This document shows positions 1,592 to 47,673 of a stretch of 64,000 nt of DNA, piece by piece (positions within the stretch are counted from its first letter, which is position 1; each line of letters starts with the position of its first letter). The notes under the pieces are model-generated. The model was not told the origin of the DNA. It worked only from the letters and a program-made list of their open reading frames with translations, and searched no databases. This DNA comes from Candidatus Janibacter merdipullorum (lineage in GTDB: Bacteria; Actinomycetota; Actinomycetes; Actinomycetales; Dermatophilaceae), in the NCBI GenBank assembly GCA_019116945.1, contig DXAR01000088.1, positions 1,430 to 65,429 of the forward strand, written 5' to 3'. Made by a program: the position numbers and the translations under genes.

Positions 1592-3220
1592 TCAGGACTG
1601 CAGGATCGTCACCGCCTGCTCACGCATCTCGACCTTGCGGACCTTGCCCGTGACGGTCATCGGGAAGGCGTCGGTGACGTGGACGTACTTCGGGATCTTG
1701 TAGTGGGCGAGCTTGCCGGTGGCGAACTCCCTGACCTCCTCGGCGGTGAGGCCCGTGGCCCCCTCCCGGAGCACGACCCAGGCCATGAGCTCCTCGCCGT
1801 ACTTCTCGTCCGGGACGCCGATGACCTGCACGTCCGCGATCGCCGGGTGCGTGTAGAGGAACTCCTCGACCTCGCGGGGATAGACGTTCTCCCCGCCGCG
1901 GATGACGAGGTCCTTGATCCGGCCGACGATGCTCACGTACCCGTCCTCGTCCATCGTGGCCAGGTCACCGGTGTGCATCCACCGGGCCGCGTCGATCGCC
2001 TCGGCGGTCTTGTCCGGCTCCTCCCAGTAGCCGAGCATGACGCTGTAGCCGCGGGTGCACAGCTCACCCGTCTCGCCCCGGGGGAGGGGCACCCCGGAGA
2101 CCGGGTCGACGACCTTGGACTCGATGTGCGGCATCGAGCGACCGACGGTCTCGGTGCGCCGGGCGAGGTCGTCATCGGTCCGCGTCATCGTCGACACCGG
2201 TGAGGTCTCGGTCATGCCGTAGCTGATGGCCACCTCCACCATGTTCATCTCCGCCACGACCCGCTTCATCACCTCGACCGGGCAGGTCGACCCGGCCATG
2301 ATCCCGGTGCGCAGGCTGCTGAGGTCGTAGTCGGCGAAGTCCGGCAGCCCGAGCTCGCCGATGAACATCGTCGGCACGCCGTAGAGCGAGGTGCACCGCT
2401 CGTCGACGACGGCCTGCAGCGTCGCCGCCGGCTCGAAGGAGGGGGCCGGGATGACCATGCAGGCACCGTGGGAGGTGGCGGCGAGATTGCCCATGACCAT
2501 GCCGAAGCAGTGGTAGAAGGGCACGGGGATGCAGATCCGGTCCTCCTCGGTGTACCGGATCAGCTCGCCGACGAAGTAGCCGTTGTTGAGGATGTTGTGG
2601 TGGCTGAGGGTCGCCCCCTTGGGGAAGCCCGTCGTCCCGGACGTGTACTGGATGTTGATCGGGTCGTCGGGGGTGAGGCCGGCCCCGCGCTCCGCGAGCT
2701 CCTCGTCGGTGACCGACGACCCGGCCGCGACGAGCGCCTCCCAGGAGGTGTCCCCGATGTGCACGACCTCGCTCAGCGACCCGCAGTCGGGACGAGCCTC
2801 CTCGACCATCGCCCGGTAGTCGGACGTCTTGTGGGACAGGGCGCTCACGAGCATCCGCATGCCCGACTGGTTGACCACGTAGGTCAGCTCGTGGGTCCGG
2901 TACGCCGGGTTGACGTTCACGAGGATCGCGCCCATGCGCGCCGTGGCGTACTGGAGGATCGTCCACTCCGGGCAGTTGGGAGCCCAGATACCGATGCGGT
3001 CGCCGGCGGCCACGCCCTTCGCCATGAGGCCCTTGGCGACGGTGTCGACGTCGGTGAGCAGCTCGCGGTAGGTCCACCGTCGGCCGCTGGGGACGTCGAC
3101 GAGGGCCTCGCGGTCGCCGTGCGTCGCCACGGTCCGCTCGAGGTTGCCGCCGATGGTGTCCCCGAGGAGGGGCGTGTCCGAGGTTCCGGACGAGTACGAA
3201 GGGGCTGGGGGCTGGGTCAT
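1592..3220 (-). CDS. AMP-dependent acyl-CoA synthetase (fatty-acid--CoA ligase family)
   Basis: [12 protein letters not shown]-loop, [13 protein letters not shown] and GKVRK motifs. Start MTQPPAP at 3220 follows AGGAGG. Confidence 0.9.
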
Positions 3221-3866: not shown

Positions 3867-5888
3867 TCAGGGGTGCTCGGCGAGTTCCCCTGCAGCGGAC
3901 CACCGCTCGAAGTGGTCGAGCACGTCGTGGCAGACCTCTTCCTCGCTGTAGTCGAAGATGTCGTACCCCGCGCCGGTCGGCAGCGAGACCTCGAGCCGCG
4001 TCGTGCGGTCGTCGGCCTCGATCATCCGCGCCCCGTAGCTCGGCGCGGCCACCTGCCGTGCCCGCACGGAGTAGACGAAGGGCGATCCCGAGGTGCCGAC
4101 GACGAGCTGAGCCGAGGCGGCCGCGGACGGGTCGCCGTCGGTGACGTCGACACGGGCCTCCCTCCCTTCGCCCTCCATGGCCTGGGCGACCTCGCGCAGG
4201 GCCGGGACGACGACGCCGGTGAGGCGATCGTTGGCTCGCCGGAGGCTCACCGTGCCGAAGGTGCGCGCGACGCGGCGACGCCAGGACCCCTGGTGCTGGG
4301 CCTCACGACCGGCGAGGTGGGTCGTCAGCGACAGCTGGGCAGCGCTCACCTGCGTGCGTTCGGCCTCGAGGGCCTTGTACAGCCCGATCATCACGAGCAC
4401 CATGACGACGGCGAAGGGCAGACCCATGACGATCGTCGCCGACTGGAGGGCGGCGATGCCGCCGACGACGAGCATGGCGATGGTGAGCACGCCCGTGGCC
4501 ACGGCCCACCCGATGCGCAGCGCTGGGTGGGCATCGGTCTCGCTGTCGGGCAGCTCCGAGCTGAGGTTGGCCATGACGAGCGCACCGGAGTCGGCGGAGG
4601 TGACGTAGAAGAGCAGGCCGACGAAGGTCGCGAGAGCCACGACGACCATGGCGGCCGGGTACTGCTGCAGGAGGGTGTAGAAGCCCTCCTCCGGCTGGTT
4701 CATCGCGAGCTCGCCGAAGTCGGCATTGCCGTCCCGGATCGACTTGACCGCAGAGTTCCCGAAGATCGAGACCCACATGACGATGTACATGAAGGGGATC
4801 GTCAGGGTGCCGAGGACGAACTGCCCGATGGTCCGGCCACGGGAGATGCGCGCGAGGAACATCCCGACGAAGGAGGCCCAGGCGACCCACCAGGCCCAGA
4901 AGAAGAGCGTCCAGGCACTCATCCAGTCGGCCGGGTGGTCGAAGGCCATCGTGTCCATCGTCATGCCGGGGAAGAGGCTGACGAAGTCGCCGACATTCAT
5001 GACGAGGCCCCGCAGGAGGAAGGCCGTCTCGCCGGTGACGAGGACCCAGAGCGCAAGGGCGATGGCGAGGACGACGTTGAGCTGGCTGAGGACCCGGATG
5101 CCGCGGTCGACGCCGGTCGTCGCGGAGATCGTCGCGACCGTGACCGCGAGGACCACGAGACCGACCTGCGCGGGGATCCCCTGCGGGACACCGAACATCA
5201 CACCGAGCCCGACGTTGAGCATGACCACGCCGATGCCGAGCGAGGTCGCGACGCCGAAGATCGTCCCGAGGACGGTCGCGATGTCGACCGCGTCGCCGAC
5301 CGGGCCACGGATCCGTCGACCGAAGATCGGGTAGAGGGCGGAGCGCACAGCCAGCGGCAGCTTCTTGCGGTGGGCGAAGTAGCCCAGGGCGATGCCCATG
5401 AGGGCGTACATGCCCCAGCCGGTGATGCCGTAGTGGAAGAGGGTCCACACCGTGGCCTCGCGAGCGGCCTGCACGGTCTCGCCCGACCCCTGTGGCGGCG
5501 CCAGGTACTGGGTCGCCGGCTCGGCGACCGCGAAGAACATCACGTCCGTGCCGATGCCGGCCGCGAAGAGCATGGCGGCCCAGGCGAAGGTCGAGAACTC
5601 CGGCCGGTCATCGTCGTCGCCGAGACGGACGCGCGCGTAGCGCACACCGACGTAGATGACGAAGACGAGGATGGCGGTCGCGAGCAGGATGTAGAACCAG
5701 CCGAACCAGTTGGCGATCCAGCCGACGGCGGTCCCGAGTGTGGTCTCGGCGTGCCCCGGTGCGAGGAGTGCCCACGCAGCGACGACGAGGGTCACGAGGC
5801 CGGAGACCGCGAGGACCGTCATCTTGACGCGCGGCCGGCTCGGGCGGTCCTCGATGAGGTCGGGGTCGATGGTCAGGGGAGCAGTCAT
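3867..5888 (-). CDS. betT: BCCT family choline/betaine transporter, BetT-type with C-terminal extension
   Basis: WAAMLFAAGIG, WTLFFWAWWVAWASFVGMFLARISRGRTI and TSADSG BCCT signatures. Start overlaps the betA stop. Confidence 0.9.
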   Translation of the reverse strand: MTAPLTIDPDLIEDRPSRPRVKMTVLAVSGLVTLVVAAWALLAPGHAETTLGTAVGWIANWFGWFYILLATAILVFVIYVGVRYARVRLGDDDDRPEFSTFAWAAMLFAAGIGTDVMFFAVAEPATQYLAPPQGSGETVQAAREATVWTLFHYGITGWGMYALMGIALGYFAHRKKLPLAVRSALYPIFGRRIRGPVGDAVDIATVLGTIFGVATSLGIGVVMLNVGLGVMFGVPQGIPAQVGLVVLAVTVATISATTGVDRGIRVLSQLNVVLAIALALWVLVTGETAFLLRGLVMNVGDFVSLFPGMTMDTMAFDHPADWMSAWTLFFWAWWVAWASFVGMFLARISRGRTIGQFVLGTLTIPFMYIVMWVSIFGNSAVKSIRDGNADFGELAMNQPEEGFYTLLQQYPAAMVVVALATFVGLLFYVTSADSGALVMANLSSELPDSETDAHPALRIGWAVATGVLTIAMLVVGGIAALQSATIVMGLPFAVVMVLVMIGLYKALEAERTQVSAAQLSLTTHLAGREAQHQGSWRRRVARTFGTVSLRRANDRLTGVVVPALREVAQAMEGEGREARVDVTDGDPSAAASAQLVVGTSGSPFVYSVRARQVAAPSYGARMIEADDRTTRLEVSLPTGAGYDIFDYSEEEVCHDVLDHFERWSAAGELAEHP

Positions 5889-7645
5889 CAGGGCCTCCTC
5901 GTCTGCTCGGCGGCACCTTGGACGGCCGCAGCGCTCGGCAGGTCGGTGCGGGCATCCCAGGCGTCGTTGCGCGGGTCGCCCTGCGGGTAGATGGGCATCC
6001 CCGCCTTGGCCCGGTAGAGCGGGGGGTGCTCCGCCGCGAGGGGCGTGTTGCCGGCGATGAGGTCGGCGGCCTTCTCGGCGACCATCATCACCGGGGCGTA
6101 GATGTTGCCGTTGGTGATCGTCGGGAAGACCGAGGCGTCGACGACGCGCAGCCCCTCCGTCCCGTGCACCCGCATCGAGCCCGGGTCGACGACCGACATC
6201 TCGTCGGTCCCCATCTTGGCCGAGCACGACGGGTGGAGCGCCGTCTCGGCGTCCTTGGCCACCCAGTCGATGATCTCCTCGTCGGTCTGCACGTCCGGGC
6301 CGGGCGAGATCTCGCCGCCGTCGAAGGGGGCGAAGGCCGGCTGCTGCAGGATGTGCCGCGCGGCGCGCACGACCTCGACCCACTCCCTTCGGTCCCGCTC
6401 CGTCGACAGGTAGTTGAAGAGGATGCTCGGCTTGGCGTGCGGGTCCGCGCTCGTGATGCGCACGCGGCCGCGCACGTCGGAGTTCATCGGGCCGATGTGC
6501 ACCTGGTAGCCGTGCTTCCCGCCGGAGGCGGTGCCGTCGTAGCGGACCGCGATCGGGAGGAAGTGGAACATGAGGTTGGGGTAGGCGACCTCGTCGTTGG
6601 TGCGGATGAAGCCCCCGCCCTCGAAGTGGTTGGAGGCGCCGACCCCACGGTTGAGGAAGAGCCACTCCGCGCCGATGTAGGGCGCCTTCCACATCTTCAG
6701 CCAGGGCGCGATCGACACCGGCTGGAGGCTCTCGTGCTGGAGGTAGACCTCGAGGTGGTCCTGGAGGTTCTCACCGACACCGGGCAGGTCGATGTGCGGG
6801 GTGACCCCGGCGGCGCGCAGCGTCTCCGGGTCGCCGACGCCGGAGAGCTGGAGCAGTTGTGGGGTGTTGAAGGCCCCACCGCAGAGGATGACCTCGCCGG
6901 CCTCGACGGAGTGCTTCCGTCGCCCGGCCCGCACGAAGTCCACACCGGTGACCCGGGTGCCCTGCCAGCGCAGCCCGGTGACCGTGGCGAGCGTCGTGAC
7001 ATCGAGGTTCTTGCGGTGGCGCACCGGGCGCAGGTAGGCGCGGGAGGCCGACATCCGGCTGGCCTTGTAGACATTGCGGTCGAAGGGGGCGAAGCCCTCC
7101 TGGCGGTAGCCGTTGACGTCGTCGGTCCGGGCGAAGCCGGCCTGGGTCGTCGCCTCGAAGAAGGCCTGGAAGAGAGGGCTCTCGGCCGGGCCGCGCTCGA
7201 GCTTGAGGGGTCCGGAGCCACCGCGCCAGGCATCGGCGCCGGCGGTCGTGGTCTCCATCCGCTTGAAGTAGGGAAGGCAGTGCGCGTAGTCCCACTGCTC
7301 CATCCCGTCGAAGCCGGCCCACGTGTCGTAGTCACCGGGGTTGCCCCGCTGGAAGATCATGCCGTTGATGCTCGAGCTGCCGCCGAGCACCTTGCCGCGG
7401 GCGTGGGCCACGCGGCGACCGCCCATGTGCGGCTCGGGGTCGGTCTCGTAGGCCCAGTCGTAGAGGGGGTTGCCCGAGGGGAACATCAGGGCGGCGGGCA
7501 TGTGGATGAGGGGGTCGGCGAGGAAGTCGGCCCGGCCCGCCTCGAGGACGAGCACGCTCGTGCCCGGGTCGCTGCTCAGTCGGTTGGCCAGCGCGGATCC
7601 CGCGGATCCTCCGCCGACGATGATGTAGTCGTAGCGCTCTCTCAT
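5888..7645 (-). CDS. betA: Choline dehydrogenase (GMC oxidoreductase)
   Basis: [15 protein letters not shown] motif, [39 protein letters not shown]. Confidence 0.92.
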
Positions 7646-22313: not shown

Positions 22314-23216
22314 ATGAACGTCACCGTGGACACCCCGGACGCGAGCGAGCTGGCTGATCTCGTGCAGGTGCTGGGGGAGTGGCATCGCGAGGGCGGCCCC
22401 TTCCAGCTGCACCCGGGGGACGTGGGGTGGTTCGGCTGGCACGGGGACGATGTCACGGCCCGGGCGCTGCGGGTATGGCGCCGAAGGGAGCAGCCGGTCG
22501 CGATCGGTCTCCTCGATGGGCCCGGTCTGCTCCGGTTGGGCATCGCACCCCATGCCATGGAGGACGGGGACATCGCGGCGGTCGTGGCCGCTGACATCGG
22601 CCACGAGGACGGGCGTGTGCTCCCCGCCGGGGACGCCGACGTCGAGGCACCGTCGACCGCGGCCCTGCGCGACGCACTCGTCGTCTCCGGGTGGACGAAG
22701 GGGGACCCGTGGACCCACCTTCGGCATGACCTCACCGACCCGGTCGAGGTCATCGGCCAGCTGCGGGTGCAGATCGTCGACGAGCGAACTGTCCACGCGC
22801 GCACCGCCGTTCACCGCGCGGCCTTCGGCAGCGACCGCTTCACGGTCGACCGCTGGCACGCCGTCGCCGCCGGCCCGGCGTATGCCTCGGCGCGCTGCCT
22901 GCTCGGGTGGAGCGGGGACGACGCGGTGGCCGCGGTGACGGTGTGGTCGGCAGGGGAGGGGAGGCCTGGCATCGTCGAGCCGATGGGCGTGCACCCCGAC
23001 CACCGAGGCCGTGGTCACGGAGCCGCGATGAGCGCAGCGGGTGCCTCGGTCCTGCGTGAGTTCGGTGCGTCGAGCGTCGTGGTCGGCACCCCGACGAGCA
23101 ACGCCGGAGCGGTAGCGACCTACGTGGCCGCCGGCTTCGCGCCCTTCGCCGAGGTCGCCGACCTGCGGCGCGCGGAGGCGAAGGGAAGACACGAGGACCC
23201 GACGCGAGTACCTTGA
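22314..23216 (+). CDS. GNAT family N-acetyltransferase
   Basis: C-terminal EPMGVHPDHRGRGHG ... NAGAVATYVAAGF. Confidence 0.8.
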   Translation: MNVTVDTPDASELADLVQVLGEWHREGGPFQLHPGDVGWFGWHGDDVTARALRVWRRREQPVAIGLLDGPGLLRLGIAPHAMEDGDIAAVVAADIGHEDGRVLPAGDADVEAPSTAALRDALVVSGWTKGDPWTHLRHDLTDPVEVIGQLRVQIVDERTVHARTAVHRAAFGSDRFTVDRWHAVAAGPAYASARCLLGWSGDDAVAAVTVWSAGEGRPGIVEPMGVHPDHRGRGHGAAMSAAGASVLREFGASSVVVGTPTSNAGAVATYVAAGFAPFAEVADLRRAEAKGRHEDPTRVP

Positions 23217-23236
23217 CCAACAAGGTGGTGATCCAG

Positions 23237-23473
23237 ATGACATTCACGATCAAGGGACTCGACAGCGGTGTCGAGAGCAAGTTGTCGGAGCTGGCCAAGA
23301 ACCACGGCCGCACCATGGAGGCCGAGGCGGCCGAGATCCTCACTGCCGCAACTCGCGGCGAAGCCCAGGACGGCACCGCTGTCATGGGGCTCTACACCTC
23401 GGCTCGCCGCGTCGTCTCCAAGGAGGCGCTCGCCCCGCCGACCCGGGTCGACTTCACACCCGACGGCTTCTGA
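23237..23473 (+). CDS. FitA-like ribbon-helix-helix protein (antitoxin/plasmid-stability family), no cognate toxin adjacent
   Basis: MTFTIKGLD...LAKNHGRTMEAEAAEIL resembles FitA TIRNLD...HGRSMEAEVR.IL; start could be 23213 or 23237. Confidence 0.7.
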   Translation: MTFTIKGLDSGVESKLSELAKNHGRTMEAEAAEILTAATRGEAQDGTAVMGLYTSARRVVSKEALAPPTRVDFTPDGF

Positions 23474-23501
23474 GGGTGCATCTGTTGGCGATGACGTCGT
23501 T

Positions 23502-23541
23502 GTCGCGTGAGGACGCAGTTATTGCGGTGTCCGGGCACGAT
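23502..23541 (+). repeat. Degenerate copy of the 40-bp palindromic element at 47208
   Basis: gtcgcgtgaggacgcagttattgcggtgtccgggcacgat, 33/40 identical to 47208-47247. Confidence 0.75.
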
Positions 23542-23559
23542 GTCCCCGTCCGAGTCGGT

Positions 23560-23924
23560 CGACGGGTTCCTGTGTGAAGAAGGTCGTCAAGACTCGGGCC
23601 ATGACGTCCGGGGCGACGACGTGTCCCTGCCCGTCGAGCGTGTGCCGTTGGGTCTGTGGGGTGGCATCGGTTATCGCCTCCGCGGATCGGTCGAAGAAGT
23701 CGTGGGGGAGACCGGCCATTTGAGGCTCGGTGATGAGACCCTCGCTGATCACTAGGACCGACTGCGTGATCCGGGCAAGTCGGTCCGTTGGGGATCTCGT
23801 CATCGTTGACGACCACGGCGTCCTTGACGAGCGTGTGGGCTAGCGCGACGGACATGGCCCAGAACGGGTGCTGCTTGTCAGTGGCGATGTCCACGTCGGG
23901 TCCGCCTGTCAGCCTCACGAACAG
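23560..23924 (-). pseudogene. C-terminal remnant of an alpha/beta hydrolase, frameshifted near 23790
   Basis: LFVRLTGG...HPFWAMSVALAHTLVKDA in one frame continues as TDRLARITQSVLV...DRSAEAI...RHTLDGQGHVVAPDVMARVLTTFF in another. Confidence 0.6.
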
Positions 23925-28265: not shown

Positions 28266-28435
28266 CGTGCCACTCCCCTTCGTCGTCGTGCCCCCACCCT
28301 CGTCCTCCGCGGGCCGACGCACGGGACCCGACCCTCCCCTGTGGACGAAGGGCGCGGACGGTCACCACATGTGGGTGGACCACCTGCTGAGACGCCGAGT
28401 TGCCCCTGCCGGACGCCAGGGGTCTACTGGATGCA

Positions 28436-28518
28436 CCCATCCAGAGCGGCCGAGAGATCTGGCTCGACGACGCCGCAGCAACCACCTTCGGGCAGGTGCT
28501 CACGCCAGGATCGATGGA
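28436..28518 (+). ncRNA. SAM riboswitch (SAM-I or SAM-I/IV variant)
   Basis: ccATCcAGAGcggccGAGAGAtctGGCTCgacGACGCCgcaGCAACC...GGTGCtcacgCCagga..GATGG matches the S-box core (AUCxAGAG, GCAACC, GGUGC). P1 is CCAUC/GAUGG. It lies upstream of sulfur-assimilation genes. Confidence 0.8.
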
Positions 28519-28525
28519 GGAAGAG

Positions 28526-44116: not shown

Positions 44117-45076
44117 TCAGCCGTGGTACAGGTCCAGCGTGGACAGTGAGTGAACGGCGATGGACTCCCGCAGCTCGGCCGGCTCGATGACCTCCGCACT
44201 GCCCGCGAGGCGGAGGACGAGACGCCGGAGGAAGCCCTCGTTGCTCGTCGGCATAGTGACGACGAGGTCCTCCCCGTCGGGCTGCCGATCGGTGACCGGG
44301 TAGTACTCGGCGACCCAGTGGGCACCGGGCGAGAGCCGCAGCCGGACCGCGGTGTCGGCCGGCTGGCGCTGGTAGGCGCCGGCGCTGAGGTCCCGCCCGG
44401 TGGCATCCGAAGGGGGCTCTGCCGCCACGTCGAGGACCTGCACCTCCTCGATCCGGTCGACGCGGAAGAGGCGCACGTCCTGCGCCCGGTGGCACCAGCC
44501 CTCGAGGTACCAGTGCCCGTCGACGTGGGCCAGGCGCATCGGGTCCACGTCGCGCTCGGTCCGCTCGTCCCGGCTGGGTACGTGGTAGCCGAGATGCACC
44601 CGCCGACCGGCGGTGAGGGCGTCCCGCAGCTGGGCCAGGGTGTGTCCGGCCTCGGTGTCGTCCTCGACGACGACCACCCGCTCGACGCCCGGGATGGCGC
44701 CCGTCGCCTCCTCGAGCTTGGCCAGGGCACGCTCGACGGCGCTGGACTCCCCTGCCCCCGTGGCGGCGAGGGAGCGCAGGCCGACGATGAGCGAGATCGC
44801 CTCGTCCACGGTGAGCCGGAGCGGGCGGTCGATCGTCTCGGCATTGCTGACGAAGACCCGCCCGCCCTCGTAGCTGGCCTCGATGAGCTCGTCGGGCATC
44901 GGACCGTAGCCGCACATGAAGAGGAGGTCGAGGTCCTCCCGCAGCTGCTTCTCGGTGATGCCGAGGCCGGCCGCGGCACGCTCGATCTCGATGCCCTGCC
45001 GGCTCGCCAGCCACGGCACCATCGTCAGGAGTCGCTGGACCCGGGTCGTCGCGGACTCGACCGGTGGGCGACTCAT
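44117..45076 (-). CDS. pafC: WYL-domain regulator PafC
   Basis: RLLTMVPWL, LREDLDLLFMCG, WYLEGWC...FRVDRI; synteny. Confidence 0.9.
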   Translation of the reverse strand: MSRPPVESATTRVQRLLTMVPWLASRQGIEIERAAAGLGITEKQLREDLDLLFMCGYGPMPDELIEASYEGGRVFVSNAETIDRPLRLTVDEAISLIVGLRSLAATGAGESSAVERALAKLEEATGAIPGVERVVVVEDDTEAGHTLAQLRDALTAGRRVHLGYHVPSRDERTERDVDPMRLAHVDGHWYLEGWCHRAQDVRLFRVDRIEEVQVLDVAAEPPSDATGRDLSAGAYQRQPADTAVRLRLSPGAHWVAEYYPVTDRQPDGEDLVVTMPTSNEGFLRRLVLRLAGSAEVIEPAELRESIAVHSLSTLDLYHG

Positions 45077-46062
45077 GCGCCGACCTCCTCGTGCAGGGCA
45101 GCGATGGCGCTCAACCTCTCGATGACGGCCTCGCGGAGCCCGGCGGGCTCCTCGACGACGACATCGCGGCCGTGGCTGAGGATCTCGGCGACGAAGGGGG
45201 CGACCTGGCCGTGGTCGACCGCCACCCGGTCCCACTGCTCGTCGACCGAGGTGACCGCGGTCGCGCGGCGGCGCAGCTGGTGCCCCGTGCCGACCCGGAC
45301 CCGCAGGACCGACGGGTGGGGACGCGGCTCCTGGGGGTCGGTCGCCGCGATCATCGAGACCGGGTCGAGGTCCTCGGGGACGGCCTGCGTCACCGGCTCC
45401 CCGGTCGTCGTGGCCCCCGACGTGATGCGCGAGAGACGGAAGACCCGGGTGGCCTCGCGATCGAGGTCGTACCCCACGAGGTACCACCGCCCGTGCCACG
45501 CCGTGAGGTTCCACGGCTCGACGTGGCGGGGGCGGCTCCCCCCTTCGCCCGGCCGCGCGTAGTCGAAGCGCACCGTCGCCGAGGTGAGCACCGCGTTCTT
45601 GAGGGGCTCGAAGGCCGGCTCGGCCCCGCCGAGCTGGGGCTCCAGACCGACGAAGGGCTCGGTGTCGACCTCGTCTCCGGCCGCGACCTTGCGCCACGCG
45701 GTCGCCGCCGCGCCGGCCATCGTCGCGTGGGCCCAGGCGCGGCTGGCCAGACCGACGACGGCCATCTCGTCGGCGGAGAGCTCGACCGCCGGCAGGTCGT
45801 AGTCGCGACGGTCGATGCGGTAGCCCTGCTCGTCCTCGAAGACCCCGATGTCCTCGGTGACGAGCGGGATGCCCATCGCCCGCAGGTCCTCCTTGTCCCG
45901 CTCGAACATCCGGTCGAAGGCCTCGTCCGACTCGACGACCTGGTAGGCCTCGACGAGCTGACGGATCCGGTGCTTGGGCAGGGGGATCCTCGACGAGAGC
46001 AGGCTCATCGTCAGGTTGAGCAACCGCTCGGTCTTGGCCTGCGGGGTGTTGGGTGCCGCCAC
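45073..46062 (-). CDS. pafB: WYL-domain regulator PafB
   Basis: KTERLLNL, RMFERDKEDLRAMGIP, WYLVGYDLDREATRVFRLSRI. Confidence 0.9.
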   Translation of the reverse strand: MAAPNTPQAKTERLLNLTMSLLSSRIPLPKHRIRQLVEAYQVVESDEAFDRMFERDKEDLRAMGIPLVTEDIGVFEDEQGYRIDRRDYDLPAVELSADEMAVVGLASRAWAHATMAGAAATAWRKVAAGDEVDTEPFVGLEPQLGGAEPAFEPLKNAVLTSATVRFDYARPGEGGSRPRHVEPWNLTAWHGRWYLVGYDLDREATRVFRLSRITSGATTTGEPVTQAVPEDLDPVSMIAATDPQEPRPHPSVLRVRVGTGHQLRRRATAVTSVDEQWDRVAVDHGQVAPFVAEILSHGRDVVVEEPAGLREAVIERLSAIAALHEEVGA

Positions 46063-46142
46063 GTCGCTCCCTTCGTCACGGTGAGGCTATCTCCGGTGGC
46101 GCCTGTGGTCGCGGTAGCCACCGCACACGGCATGGCGCGGTC

Positions 46143-46181
46143 GTCCCGCGAGGACATGGTCATTGCTACGCCCGCGCGCAC
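46143..46181 (+). repeat. Degenerate copy of the palindromic element, upstream flank of the DUF559-like gene
   Basis: gtcccgcgaggacatggtcattgctacgcccgcgcgcac, 29/37 identical to 47208-47244; cacggc lies 17 nt upstream in both copies. Confidence 0.65.
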
Positions 46182-46255
46182 CAACCACGTCTGGCACGGG
46201 TCACGGCTGTGGACAACTCGCGGCGCGTCCGCCGCGCGTGCGTGAGGATCGACGG

Positions 46256-47178
46256 ATGGACGCCCGACTGAGGACCCGCGCGGAGGCGCAGTTCGGGGTG
46301 TTCACCTGGCAGGACGTCACGTCGCTCCTCGTCCGCCCGTGGGAGCTACGGACGGCGATCGCGCGCGGTGAGGTCGTCCGGGTGCGTCGCGATGCGTACG
46401 TCCTCGGCGACCTGTGGCGGGATGCGCGCCCCACCGAGCGCCTGGCCCTGCGCGTCCGCGCCTGCCTGCGCTCCCGGTCGGATGTGGTCGCCACGCACCA
46501 GAGCGCCCTCGCCCTGCACGGGCTGCCCTGCTGGGGGTTGCCGACCGATGTCGTCGATGCCTGCGGCCCGGTCACCCGTACCCGGACGGTGGGTGGCCTG
46601 CGCATCCATCCCCGACCCGCGGGTCTCGAGCCGACCGACGTGGGCGGCACGGCCGCGGTGGACATCCCCCTCGCCATCGCCCAGGTGGCACAGCGGCACG
46701 GGGTGGTTCCCGCCCTCGTGGCGCTCGACCGAGGCCTGCACGAGCGGCGCTGCCGGCAGGCCGAGGTGTCGCCGCGGTCCGTCGGGTCGCGCGCAGCTCC
46801 CGCGAGACGACCCGGATGGAGGCGATCCTCGCCTTGGCCGATGCCGCGTGCGAATCCGTCGGCGAGACCCGCACGCGCATCCTCCTCGAGGATCTGGGCT
46901 ACTCCGTCAGGAGCCAGGTCACCATCAGTGACGAGGACGGCCGATTCGTCGGCCGGGTGGACTTCATGATCGGCGATGGGGTCGTCGTCGAGTTCGATGG
47001 CATGGTCAAGTACGAGGGGGCCGAAGGGCGGTCCGCCCTCGCCGCGGAGAAGCGGCGCGAGGAGCGACTGAGCGCGCTGGGGTGCGTCGCCATCCGACTC
47101 GTGTGGGCCGACCTCGACCACCCGCAGCGGATCCGCACCATGGTCGAGGCGGCTCGGCAGCGCGCACGGCGTCCCTGA
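46256..47178 (+). pseudogene. AbiEi-like N-terminal / DUF559 (Vsr-like nuclease) protein, frameshifted near 46769
   Basis: N-part AEAQFGVFT...VVRVRRDAY...ATHQSALALHG; C-part ACESVGETRTR...GRVDF...VVEFDGMVKY...EKRREERL in another frame. Confidence 0.75.
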
Positions 47179-47207
47179 CCCGGCTGGCACCACGGCCGGA
47201 CGGACAC

Positions 47208-47247
47208 GTCGCGCGCGGACGCAGTTATTGCTGCGTCCGCGCGCGAC
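47208..47247. repeat. Perfect 17-bp-stem palindrome (REP-like; may also terminate transcription)
   Basis: gtcgcgcgcggacgcag-ttattg-ctgcgtccgcgcgcgac. Confidence 0.8.
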
Positions 47248-47286
47248 AAGTGCGTCCCGGCGCGGTGGTGGCGGGGCGAAGGGAGG

Positions 47287-47673
47287 TCAGCCGACCTTGA
47301 CGAGGTCCACGACGAAGATCAGCGTCTCGCCGCCCTTGATGACATTGCCCGCGCCCTGGTCGCCGTAGCCGAGGTGCGGCGGGATGGTGATCTTGCGACG
47401 GCCGCCCTCCTTCATGCCGAGGAGCCCGTCGTCCCAGCCCTTGATGACCTGGCCGATGCCCGCGGTGAAGGCGAGCGGTGCGCCGCGGTTCCACGAAGCG
47501 TCGAACTCCTCGCCGGTGGAGTGCGCGACCCCGACGTAGTGCGCCTGGATCGGCGAGCCGGCCGTGACCTCGGCGCCGTCACCGACGGTGATGTCCTCGA
47601 CGAGGAGCTCCGTGGGCGGGGTGTCGCCGGGGAAGTCGATCTCGGGCTTGGTCGTGCTCGGGTCGAAGGGCAT
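47287..47673 (-). CDS. FKBP-type peptidyl-prolyl isomerase (cytoplasmic)
   Basis: HYVGV, FDASWNRG, VIKGWDDG, PPHLGYG, TLIFVVDL. Confidence 0.93.
   Translation of the reverse strand: MPFDPSTTKPEIDFPGDTPPTELLVEDITVGDGAEVTAGSPIQAHYVGVAHSTGEEFDASWNRGAPLAFTAGIGQVIKGWDDGLLGMKEGGRRKITIPPHLGYGDQGAGNVIKGGETLIFVVDLVKVG

Follow-up and report, generated by a model that had tools for sequence, protein, structure and literature searches.

Repetitive extragenic palindromic (REP) sequences occur in tens to hundreds of copies and, as matching hairpins, flank the genes of the RAYT proteins, which are HUH Y1 transposases. IS200/IS605 elements code for the HUH transposase TnpA and/or for TnpB, and possess subterminal palindromes that are accompanied by guide sequences. 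The REP13E12 elements of Mycobacterium tuberculosis are multicopy chromosomal repeats of ~1.4 kb, which encode DUF222/HNH nuclease-domain proteins and serve as prophage attachment sites. Finally, two groups of proteins are linked to (pseudo)palindromic DNA: I-Bth0305I, a homing enzyme of the Vsr fold, forms a homodimer and has a pseudopalindromic target (PMC3239194), and AbiEi proteins bind inverted repeats at their own promoters and repress them (PMC7319586). Here we describe a 64-kb stretch of DNA from Candidatus Janibacter merdipullorum, termed the window throughout its 64,000 nucleotides, which harbours a gene for an AbiEi-like/Vsr-type nuclease between two matching palindromic repeats, inserted at the junction of a small FKBP gene and pafB.

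Gene and repeats form a discrete cassette with the order terminal palindromic repeat, DnaA-box-like site, ribosome-binding site, AbiEi/Vsr open reading frame (ORF) and second terminal repeat. The terminal palindromes match each other and evolve in concert, the genomic contexts vary, and the unit is gained or lost among sister lineages. Cassettes of this design are widespread in Actinobacteria, and each clade has its own repeat sequence. A first-pass annotation of the window had viewed nuclease gene and hairpin as a candidate REP/RAYT-like system. The pairing of gene and palindromes proved to be family-wide and clade-specific, yet the many dispersed hairpins implied by that idea were not found, and an exact-match scan of genomes stays at the level of chance.

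Matching palindromes at both ends of the gene

The nuclease gene in the window is followed by a perfect palindrome with a 17-bp stem and a TTATTG loop, just as the first-pass annotation had read it, and the RNA fold of this core (-59.4 kcal/mol) departs strongly from 200 shuffles (z = -7.8). The core upstream of the gene has the same orientation and is a degenerate copy, which matches the downstream core without gaps at 30/40 positions; the best chance match of the 40-mer in 200 dinucleotide-preserving shuffles of the whole window reaches 29/40. The likeness of the two copies, which had been noted to continue outside the cores, extends over ~75 nt each (Table 1), yet the upstream copy no longer folds (z = +0.66).

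Relatives of the gene were compared in 80 metagenomic loci (57 of them non-redundant), where the 220 nt before the start codon were matched with the 220 nt after the stop codon, and the same geometry and spacing placed elsewhere in the same loci served as the null. Flank similarity exceeds the 95th percentile of the null in 37/57 loci, the 99th percentile in 31/57 and the null maximum in 16/57, and the family-wide excess is pronounced (Mann-Whitney p = 1e-17). Flanking of DUF559/AbiEi paralogues by the hairpin, which the first-pass annotation had put up for testing, holds in most loci in the form that repeats of the gene's own clade bracket it. The flank score of the window is 31 compared to a null 95th percentile of 29 and hence marginal alone; its weight comes from the family. 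This narrow margin speaks for a chance resemblance between ordinary G+C-rich terminator hairpins, as do the unrelated terminator-like hairpins present in the spacers of three related empty sites (L145, L147 and L141; see below). Yet none of the 200 shuffles reaches 30/40, the excess pervades the family, the same loop sequence accompanies homologues in other contexts, and the hairpins lack T-tails, so that we regard chance resemblance as extremely improbable.

The repeats are palindromes or hairpin-forming units of 50-90 nt. In the median, the upstream copy ends 65 nt before the ATG and the downstream copy begins 8 nt after the stop codon. A 71% identical homologue resides in a different context (L003), between PIG-L and a MaoC hydratase, and has a 56-nt palindrome repeated in direct orientation on its two sides; the apex of this palindrome is the reverse complement of the window sequence GTTATTGC. 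The TTATTG-loop type brackets not only this homologue but also the genes in L006 and L014, while the Janibacter homologue in L004 has a different repeat. In L055 the left terminal palindrome is duplicated in tandem, upstream of position 3001. A preferred orientation relative to the neighbouring genes was also considered, and a crude ORF-based test revealed no clear rule.

Repeat type and protein clade go together, as had been anticipated for hairpin and nuclease. Among non-syntenic locus pairs, repeat similarity correlates with protein identity (Spearman p = 7e-50) and appears only from 60% identity upwards: no pair below 50% protein identity shares repeat similarity, compared to 61% of the pairs at 60-70% and 79% of those above 70%. 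A second paralogue (L030, 63-770), which is 52% identical to the window protein, has a different palindrome made of TCCCGGTCAC units. This locus co-occurs with the window organism in four metagenomes (X1, X3, X4 and X11) at similar depth, and the paralogue probably belongs to the same genome as the window gene.

What copies in unrelated contexts have in common is the gene with ~120-190 nt before it and 60-77 nt after it. Nucleotide homology stays between positions -190 and +77 of the ORF in each of the 24 non-syntenic pairs that have 600 nt of flank or more on either side. The sharpest case is provided by L053 and L063, which encode proteins of 87% identity within unrelated 3-kb flanks: homology extends from -117 to +71, stops on both sides at the outer palindrome edges, GTTAGCNGGTTTG...CAAACCNGCTAAC, and includes no second ORF. 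The two repeat copies of L053 are alike down to their 22-nt loops, while the same end differs between L053 and L063; therefore, the two ends evolve in concert. The repeats are thus part of the cassette rather than of the host site, and the greater likeness of the two copies within a cassette than of homologous copies between cassettes indicates concerted evolution.

Table 1. Coordinates of the cassette, its repeats and the adjacent genes in the window
Feature	Position	Strand	Remarks
Segment present in filled alleles and absent from empty junctions	46090-47286	+	~1.2-kb cassette plus immediate non-homologous flanks
Upstream terminal repeat unit	46126-46200	+	core 46143-46182; degenerate copy of downstream palindrome, loop TCATTG
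DnaA-box-like site TTGTCCACA (plus strand: TGTGGACAA)	46208-46216	-	between upstream repeat and ATG
Shine-Dalgarno-like GAGGA	46244-46248	+	7 nt 5' of ATG; GTGCGTGAGGATCGACGGATG stretch kept in L001; read from sequence
AbiEi-like (winged-helix + C-terminal domain) / Vsr-type nuclease fusion gene	46256-47178	+	~307 aa; from ORFs and frame analysis
Downstream terminal repeat unit	47191-47265	+	core 47208-47247, 29 nt after stop codon
Solo gene-less third copy	23502-23541	+	partly degenerate, 33/40 match, TTATTG loop, between convergent genes
tatC		-	
tatA		-	
pafC	44117-45103	-	
pafB	45073-46062	-	
Small FKBP gene	47287-47673	-	
Larger FKBP gene		-	
pafA		-	

Filled and empty alleles and the copy number of the palindromes

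The window covers the Pup-proteasome neighbourhood of a Janibacter, and its PafB is 76-80% identical to that of named Janibacter species. The gene had been thought to interrupt an otherwise conserved FKBP-pafB junction, with an empty site to be sought in sister strains. Relatives do display it: in five related lineages the FKBP gene is followed directly by pafB, with spacers of 74-130 nt. The empty lineages are L138, L143, L145, L147 and L141 (J. cremeus), whose PafB proteins are 88%, 86%, 82%, 80% and 78% identical to that of the window, respectively. Homology of the window to empty L138 and L141 ends at the FKBP stop codon (47287) and resumes at 46089.

Two lineages are filled, namely the window and L001, where an 84% homologue occupies the same position between pafB and FKBP; both of them have an empty sister. 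In a neighbour-joining tree of FKBP plus pafB, the window pairs with L138, which is empty, and filled L001 pairs with L143, also empty; L001 and L143 are 97% identical over 200 nt beside the site on both sides. Both filled alleles show the same junction sequence beside the FKBP stop codon and therefore derive from one insertion. The distribution of this insertion does not agree with the flanks. In a distant actinobacterium, the pafBC-FKBP-pafA locus also contains a cassette, immediately downstream of its small FKBP gene; this cassette belongs to a distant clade (L053/L054, 3001-3924; protein 37% identical to that of the window), and the nearest relatives of the cassette sit elsewhere. Accordingly, the position downstream of the small FKBP gene may be a recurrent insertion site.

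The copy in the window is decaying. The nuclease gene is split over two frames by the loss of a single C after 46767, which identifies it as a pseudogene of recent origin. The missing C is present in three other assemblies of the same species (L129, L136 and L005) and in run X11, an intact allele 99% identical to the window gene exists, and the frameshift is common to eight assemblies. Thus, the gene is a pseudogene in the window and intact in other strains. With its reading frame broken and its upstream repeat decayed, the window element is inactive. The palindromes themselves change as well. In strain L005 an 81-bp deletion (47160-47240) with GCGCG microhomology at its junction takes out the stop codon together with much of the perfect hairpin, all but its last part; alleles with and without the deletion occur side by side in one dust metagenome (run X1, depth 3 vs 10), and the deletion is fixed in L005. 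In the sister filled allele L001, the perfect palindrome is the upstream one (5880-5910, GCGGCATGGCGCG GTCGT CGCGCCATGCCGC; cf. window 46126-46160) and the downstream one has decayed, an opposite pattern of decay that suggests rapid palindrome turnover. A separate 14-nt inverted repeat, CTCCCTTCGTCACG / CGGGGCGAAGGGAG, flanks the whole insert at 46067-46080 and 47272-47285; one arm is the ribosome-binding region of pafB, and the other abuts the FKBP stop codon and is present only in filled alleles.

Outside the cassettes the palindromes are rare. The core GRCGCNGTTATTGCNGNGTCC was scanned against one genome per species (185,579 species, 596 Gb), which yielded 42 matches, about chance level, for exact matches only, so that degenerate copies could be missed and a modest family is possible. 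At most two core matches occur per genome, a number reached only in Janibacter sp. GXQ6167, and the nuclease gene has no homologue in any of the 42 loci. Within +/-3 kb of ~40 cassettes no extra palindrome copies were found, and a profile search of the 868 kb of fetched DNA turned up nothing further except the pair that flanks the gene in L014 and, in L104, a second gene-less copy in tandem with the first. Therefore, the palindromes are low in copy number and essentially confined to cassette ends, with rare solos.

Gene-less copies occur in the window, L093 and L104. In the window, a single solo copy resides at 23502, with no AbiEi/Vsr gene nearby and no convincing gene remnant in a tblastn search with 386 family proteins; a candidate remnant at 23394-23684 (match to P0058, E = 0.05) was judged non-significant given the 386 queries. 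A small ORF (23216-23474) ends just before this hairpin and encodes a motif, HGRTMEAEAAEIL, typical of Arc/VapB-like antitoxins; a GNAT-like ORF lies upstream of it. L093 holds another solo gene-less copy, and in L104 (3428-3568; Janibacter sp. GXQ6167 Scaffold2) two tandem hairpin units of ~80 nt with TTATTG/TAATTG loops occupy a convergent intergenic region without a nuclease gene. The L104 pair could be a gene-less derivative or a footprint.

These numbers bear on the idea that a domesticated nuclease multiplies and maintains a genome-wide family of its own hairpins. Like RAYT genes, the nuclease gene stands between matching hairpins, gene-less copies exist in the window, L093 and L104, and the hairpin type covaries with the clade. 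Yet the chance-level yield of the exact-match scan, with no more than two matches per genome, the lack of extra copies around ~40 cassettes, the one solo in 64 kb and a protein that is not HUH/Y1 leave a REP/RAYT-like system quite improbable; the multiplicity of the hairpin throughout the genome that such a system implies was not seen in these searches.

Alternatively, the cassette might be a non-autonomous passenger, the ends of which are read by an unlinked recombinase or transposase, e.g., an IS200/IS605-type TnpA that acts on hairpins, with the AbiEi-Vsr gene as cargo or as a TnpB-like homing helper. Hairpin ends without terminal duplication resemble the IS200/IS605 architecture, and a lone PD-(D/E)xK nuclease is generally understood to lack strand-transfer chemistry. 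However, the repeats track the clade of the encoded protein in diverse hosts, which is explained most simply if the encoded protein reads them, no transposase gene was seen near ~70 loci, and the multicopy identical elements expected of an active, trans-mobilised element resembling miniature inverted-repeat transposable elements are missing. We deem this option improbable.

The encoded protein and the signals around the gene

The protein combines an AbiEi-like part with a Vsr-type nuclease domain. Searches of Pfam and NCBIfam with the gene halves and the repaired protein gave nothing significant, so that the domains were assigned from the predicted structure and from relatives. The AlphaFold model, built on 33 homologues, has a pLDDT of 92.7. 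In Foldseek searches with this model, residues 1-195 resemble the two-domain AbiEi antitoxin 6y8q (E = 6e-5), and the last ~100 residues resemble the catalytic domain of I-Bth0305I (3r3p; TM 0.73, E = 2e-3); further C-terminal matches include Vsr (1cw0), the restriction-like nuclease of R2 elements and the DUF559-type protein 3hrl. Among the 33 relatives, AbiEi_4 is matched by 26, MTES_1575 by five and DUF559, weakly, by six (best E = 0.0026), and the PADLOC AbiEi profile recognizes the relative P0002 with E = 7e-15. The window protein itself matches Pfam AbiEi_4 with E = 0.087 only, and DUF559 (PF04480) not even at E = 10. The label DUF559/AbiEi-like of the first-pass annotation is thus appropriate as to the predicted AbiEi-like/Vsr-type fold and the weak DUF559 and MTES_1575 matches of relatives, and fails as a DUF559 profile assignment; going by the model, the window protein is a fold-level relative of DUF559, not a member by profile.

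The motifs ES.GE, RVDF, VEFDG..KY and EK.RE are invariant in the 33 homologues, as are residues D235, E245, D247 and K251, and a lysine stands where the EDxHD/DUF559 motif has histidine (VEFDGxxKY). Given these invariant motifs, intact copies probably encode an active nuclease. The family is large: a profile search recovered 1,313 clusters (50% identity) at a cut-off of E <= 1e-30, a number that rises to 7,598 at E <= 1e-10.

Between the upstream repeat and the ATG, the window contains the 9-mer TTGTCCACA, which occurs nowhere else in the 64 kb and is identical to the high-affinity DnaA box of M. tuberculosis and Streptomyces coelicolor (PMC4285127 Table 1). The same 9-mer is found upstream of 22/57 homologous genes, and a relaxed form upstream of 39/57. 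Its positions are fixed (-59 and -89 forward, -48 reverse), and it does not occur in 346 kb elsewhere in the loci. A role as a -35 promoter element was rejected, because both orientations occur at similar distances. In L058, four TTGTCCACA boxes are lined up in a row.

At the other end of the gene, the hairpins show no sign of a function at the RNA level. Sense and antisense stabilities of the downstream hairpins do not differ (p = 0.41), G-U pairs are not in excess, and a T-rich tail follows none of 56 downstream hairpins. A consensus scan of 45900-47500 found neither promoter nor terminator, and an Rfam scan of the window had no match at the hairpins; its only hit was an S-adenosylmethionine (SAM) riboswitch (RF00162, 56.6 bits) at 28434-28520. 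The downstream hairpin data fit DNA-level palindromes better than canonical terminators, although actinobacterial terminators without a U-tract are possible.

The AbiEi-like fold and the PADLOC AbiEi matches lead to the main rival explanation, a stationary defence or toxin-antitoxin-like gene. Such a gene would be a single-chain AbiE derivative, in which the AbiEi-like part controls the fused nuclease, and would reach new sites solely through ordinary horizontal transfer and through recombination, whether illegitimate or homologous, with no part played by its own nuclease. The upstream repeat would then be an autoregulatory operator, in keeping with the repression of AbiEi promoters through inverted repeats (PMC7319586), and the downstream repeat a terminator, an insulator or a second looping operator. 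Low copy number and the lack of recent transposition agree with this explanation, as does the dispensability of a gene whose frameshift allele is common, and presence and absence could reflect allele replacement through the conserved flanking genes. However, it leaves unexplained why most lineages have an operator copy after the stop codon that evolves in concert with the upstream one, loops included, and why homology never passes beyond the repeats and ends at their outer edges in the aligned clade. Moreover, an adjacent AbiEii partner is lacking, and the downstream hairpins show neither T-tails nor strand bias. We therefore consider a stationary gene with operator repeats unlikely, while it deserves more weight than the other alternatives.

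The cassette as a possible mobile element and its relation to known systems

The window cassette can be read as a decaying copy of a self-contained, single-gene unit of ~1.15-1.2 kb, which behaves as a low-activity mobile or homing-like element by means of its own nuclease; we find the arguments for and against this reading about evenly balanced. With somewhat less assurance, we put forward that the family represents an unrecognised class of actinobacterial selfish elements with thousands of members, where an AbiEi-like/Vsr nuclease recognises its own terminal palindromes and, with the aid of a DnaA site of the host, drives relocation or the conversion of alleles in the absence of an HUH, DDE, serine or tyrosine recombinase. 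An undescribed, slowly moving selfish element is probably a better description than a REP system that spreads hairpins.

By analogy to the proteins it resembles, a dimer would bind the terminal palindromes of its own cassette through the AbiEi-like part, and the Vsr-type nuclease might nick or cut at or near the palindromes or at empty target sites. Recombination and repair by the host could in turn move or copy the cassette, at a low rate and in a manner akin to homing or transposition. The same binding to the palindromes would probably autoregulate the gene, and through the DnaA box expression or DNA opening may be coupled to the state of replication. The gene-less copies (23502; L093 and L104) might be footprints or non-autonomous derivatives.

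Several results weigh against an element that moves by itself. About 20 of the 57 loci are without clear flank similarity, and the repeats are direct in 16 loci, inverted in nine and ambiguous in 12, which one rigid mechanism of end recognition does not predict. At the FKBP-pafB site, 1,189 bp in L001 take the place of a 42-nt spacer of L143, which is not a simple split of the site; neither this pair nor the L053 clade shows a target-site duplication, and no solo palindrome was found in empty alleles. A sliding-window comparison of the two filled lineages, whose alleles are 13% diverged, detected no excess similarity beside the site that would betray co-conversion. All pairs with at least 85% gene identity are syntenic, and contexts differ only where nucleotide identity is 83% or lower; cassettes that are nearly identical yet occupy different sites, and with them any direct sign of recent movement, are missing. 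Essentially no family members occur in plasmids, phages or IMG/VR contigs. Finally, a lone PD-(D/E)xK nuclease is not known to have strand-transfer activity.

Searches of the open full-text literature on DUF559, AbiEi_4 and MTES_1575 returned no account of the arrangement, with a single hint. DUF559 and endonuclease domain-containing proteins are enriched among predicted targets of programmed inversion (odds ratios 14 and 10; PMC9881135), and this enrichment of DUF559 genes may reflect flanking repeats of the kind reported here. Thousands of actinobacterial genes are annotated as AbiEi antitoxin, DUF559 or very-short-patch-repair endonuclease and have no known role, and one large branch of them exhibits a fixed cassette design with co-evolving terminal palindromes, an internal DnaA box and sharp boundaries. 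If the nuclease indeed acts on its own ends, this would constitute a new route from a restriction-type nuclease fold to a mobile or homing element and a new source of DNA binders and nucleases specific for long palindromes. It would also correct a widespread antitoxin annotation and explain small presence/absence differences between collinear actinobacterial genomes.

Compared to known systems, the cassette shares individual features with each of them. Like REP/RAYT, it comprises a single-copy chromosomal gene of nuclease type bracketed by matching palindromes, with few gene-less copies and a clade-specific repeat type. In contrast to RAYT, the protein is predicted to be a fusion of an AbiEi-like winged-helix part with a Vsr-type PD-(D/E)xK nuclease and has no HUH match; the repeats number two per cassette plus rare solos, and the gene moves together with its repeats as one cassette.

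The IS200/IS605 elements are similar in size (~1.1-1.2 kb), in their hairpin-forming ends, which are alike and often in the same orientation, and in that no target-site duplication was detected. Unlike them, the cassette consists of a single AbiEi/Vsr ORF without TnpA or TnpB, lacks multicopy near-identical insertions, has ends that are either direct or inverted and bears its palindromes at the very ends. The likeness to REP13E12 is one of description, as an actinobacterial chromosomal repeat unit that codes for a nuclease-domain protein.

The AbiE type IV toxin-antitoxin systems correspond in the first ~195 residues, which match two-domain AbiEi in fold and profile. Here, however, the nuclease domain is fused, a second copy of the repeat follows the gene, and an AbiEii (DUF1814) nucleotidyltransferase partner is not adjacent, neither in the window, where pafB and FKBP are the neighbours, nor in L003 and L004, where unrelated genes are.

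Vsr-fold (EDxHD) homing endonucleases and free-standing homing genes differ from the cassette in that the latter lies outside introns, inteins and phages, possesses its own terminal repeats and a DnaA box, carries a lysine in place of the motif histidine, and shows no detected co-conversion of flanking markers between filled alleles that are 13% diverged. The likenesses are a catalytic domain predicted to have the same fold, preceded by an N-terminal DNA-binding region, a protein that by analogy would likely act as a dimer on (pseudo)palindromic DNA, a solitary position between conserved genes, and filled and empty alleles among close relatives.

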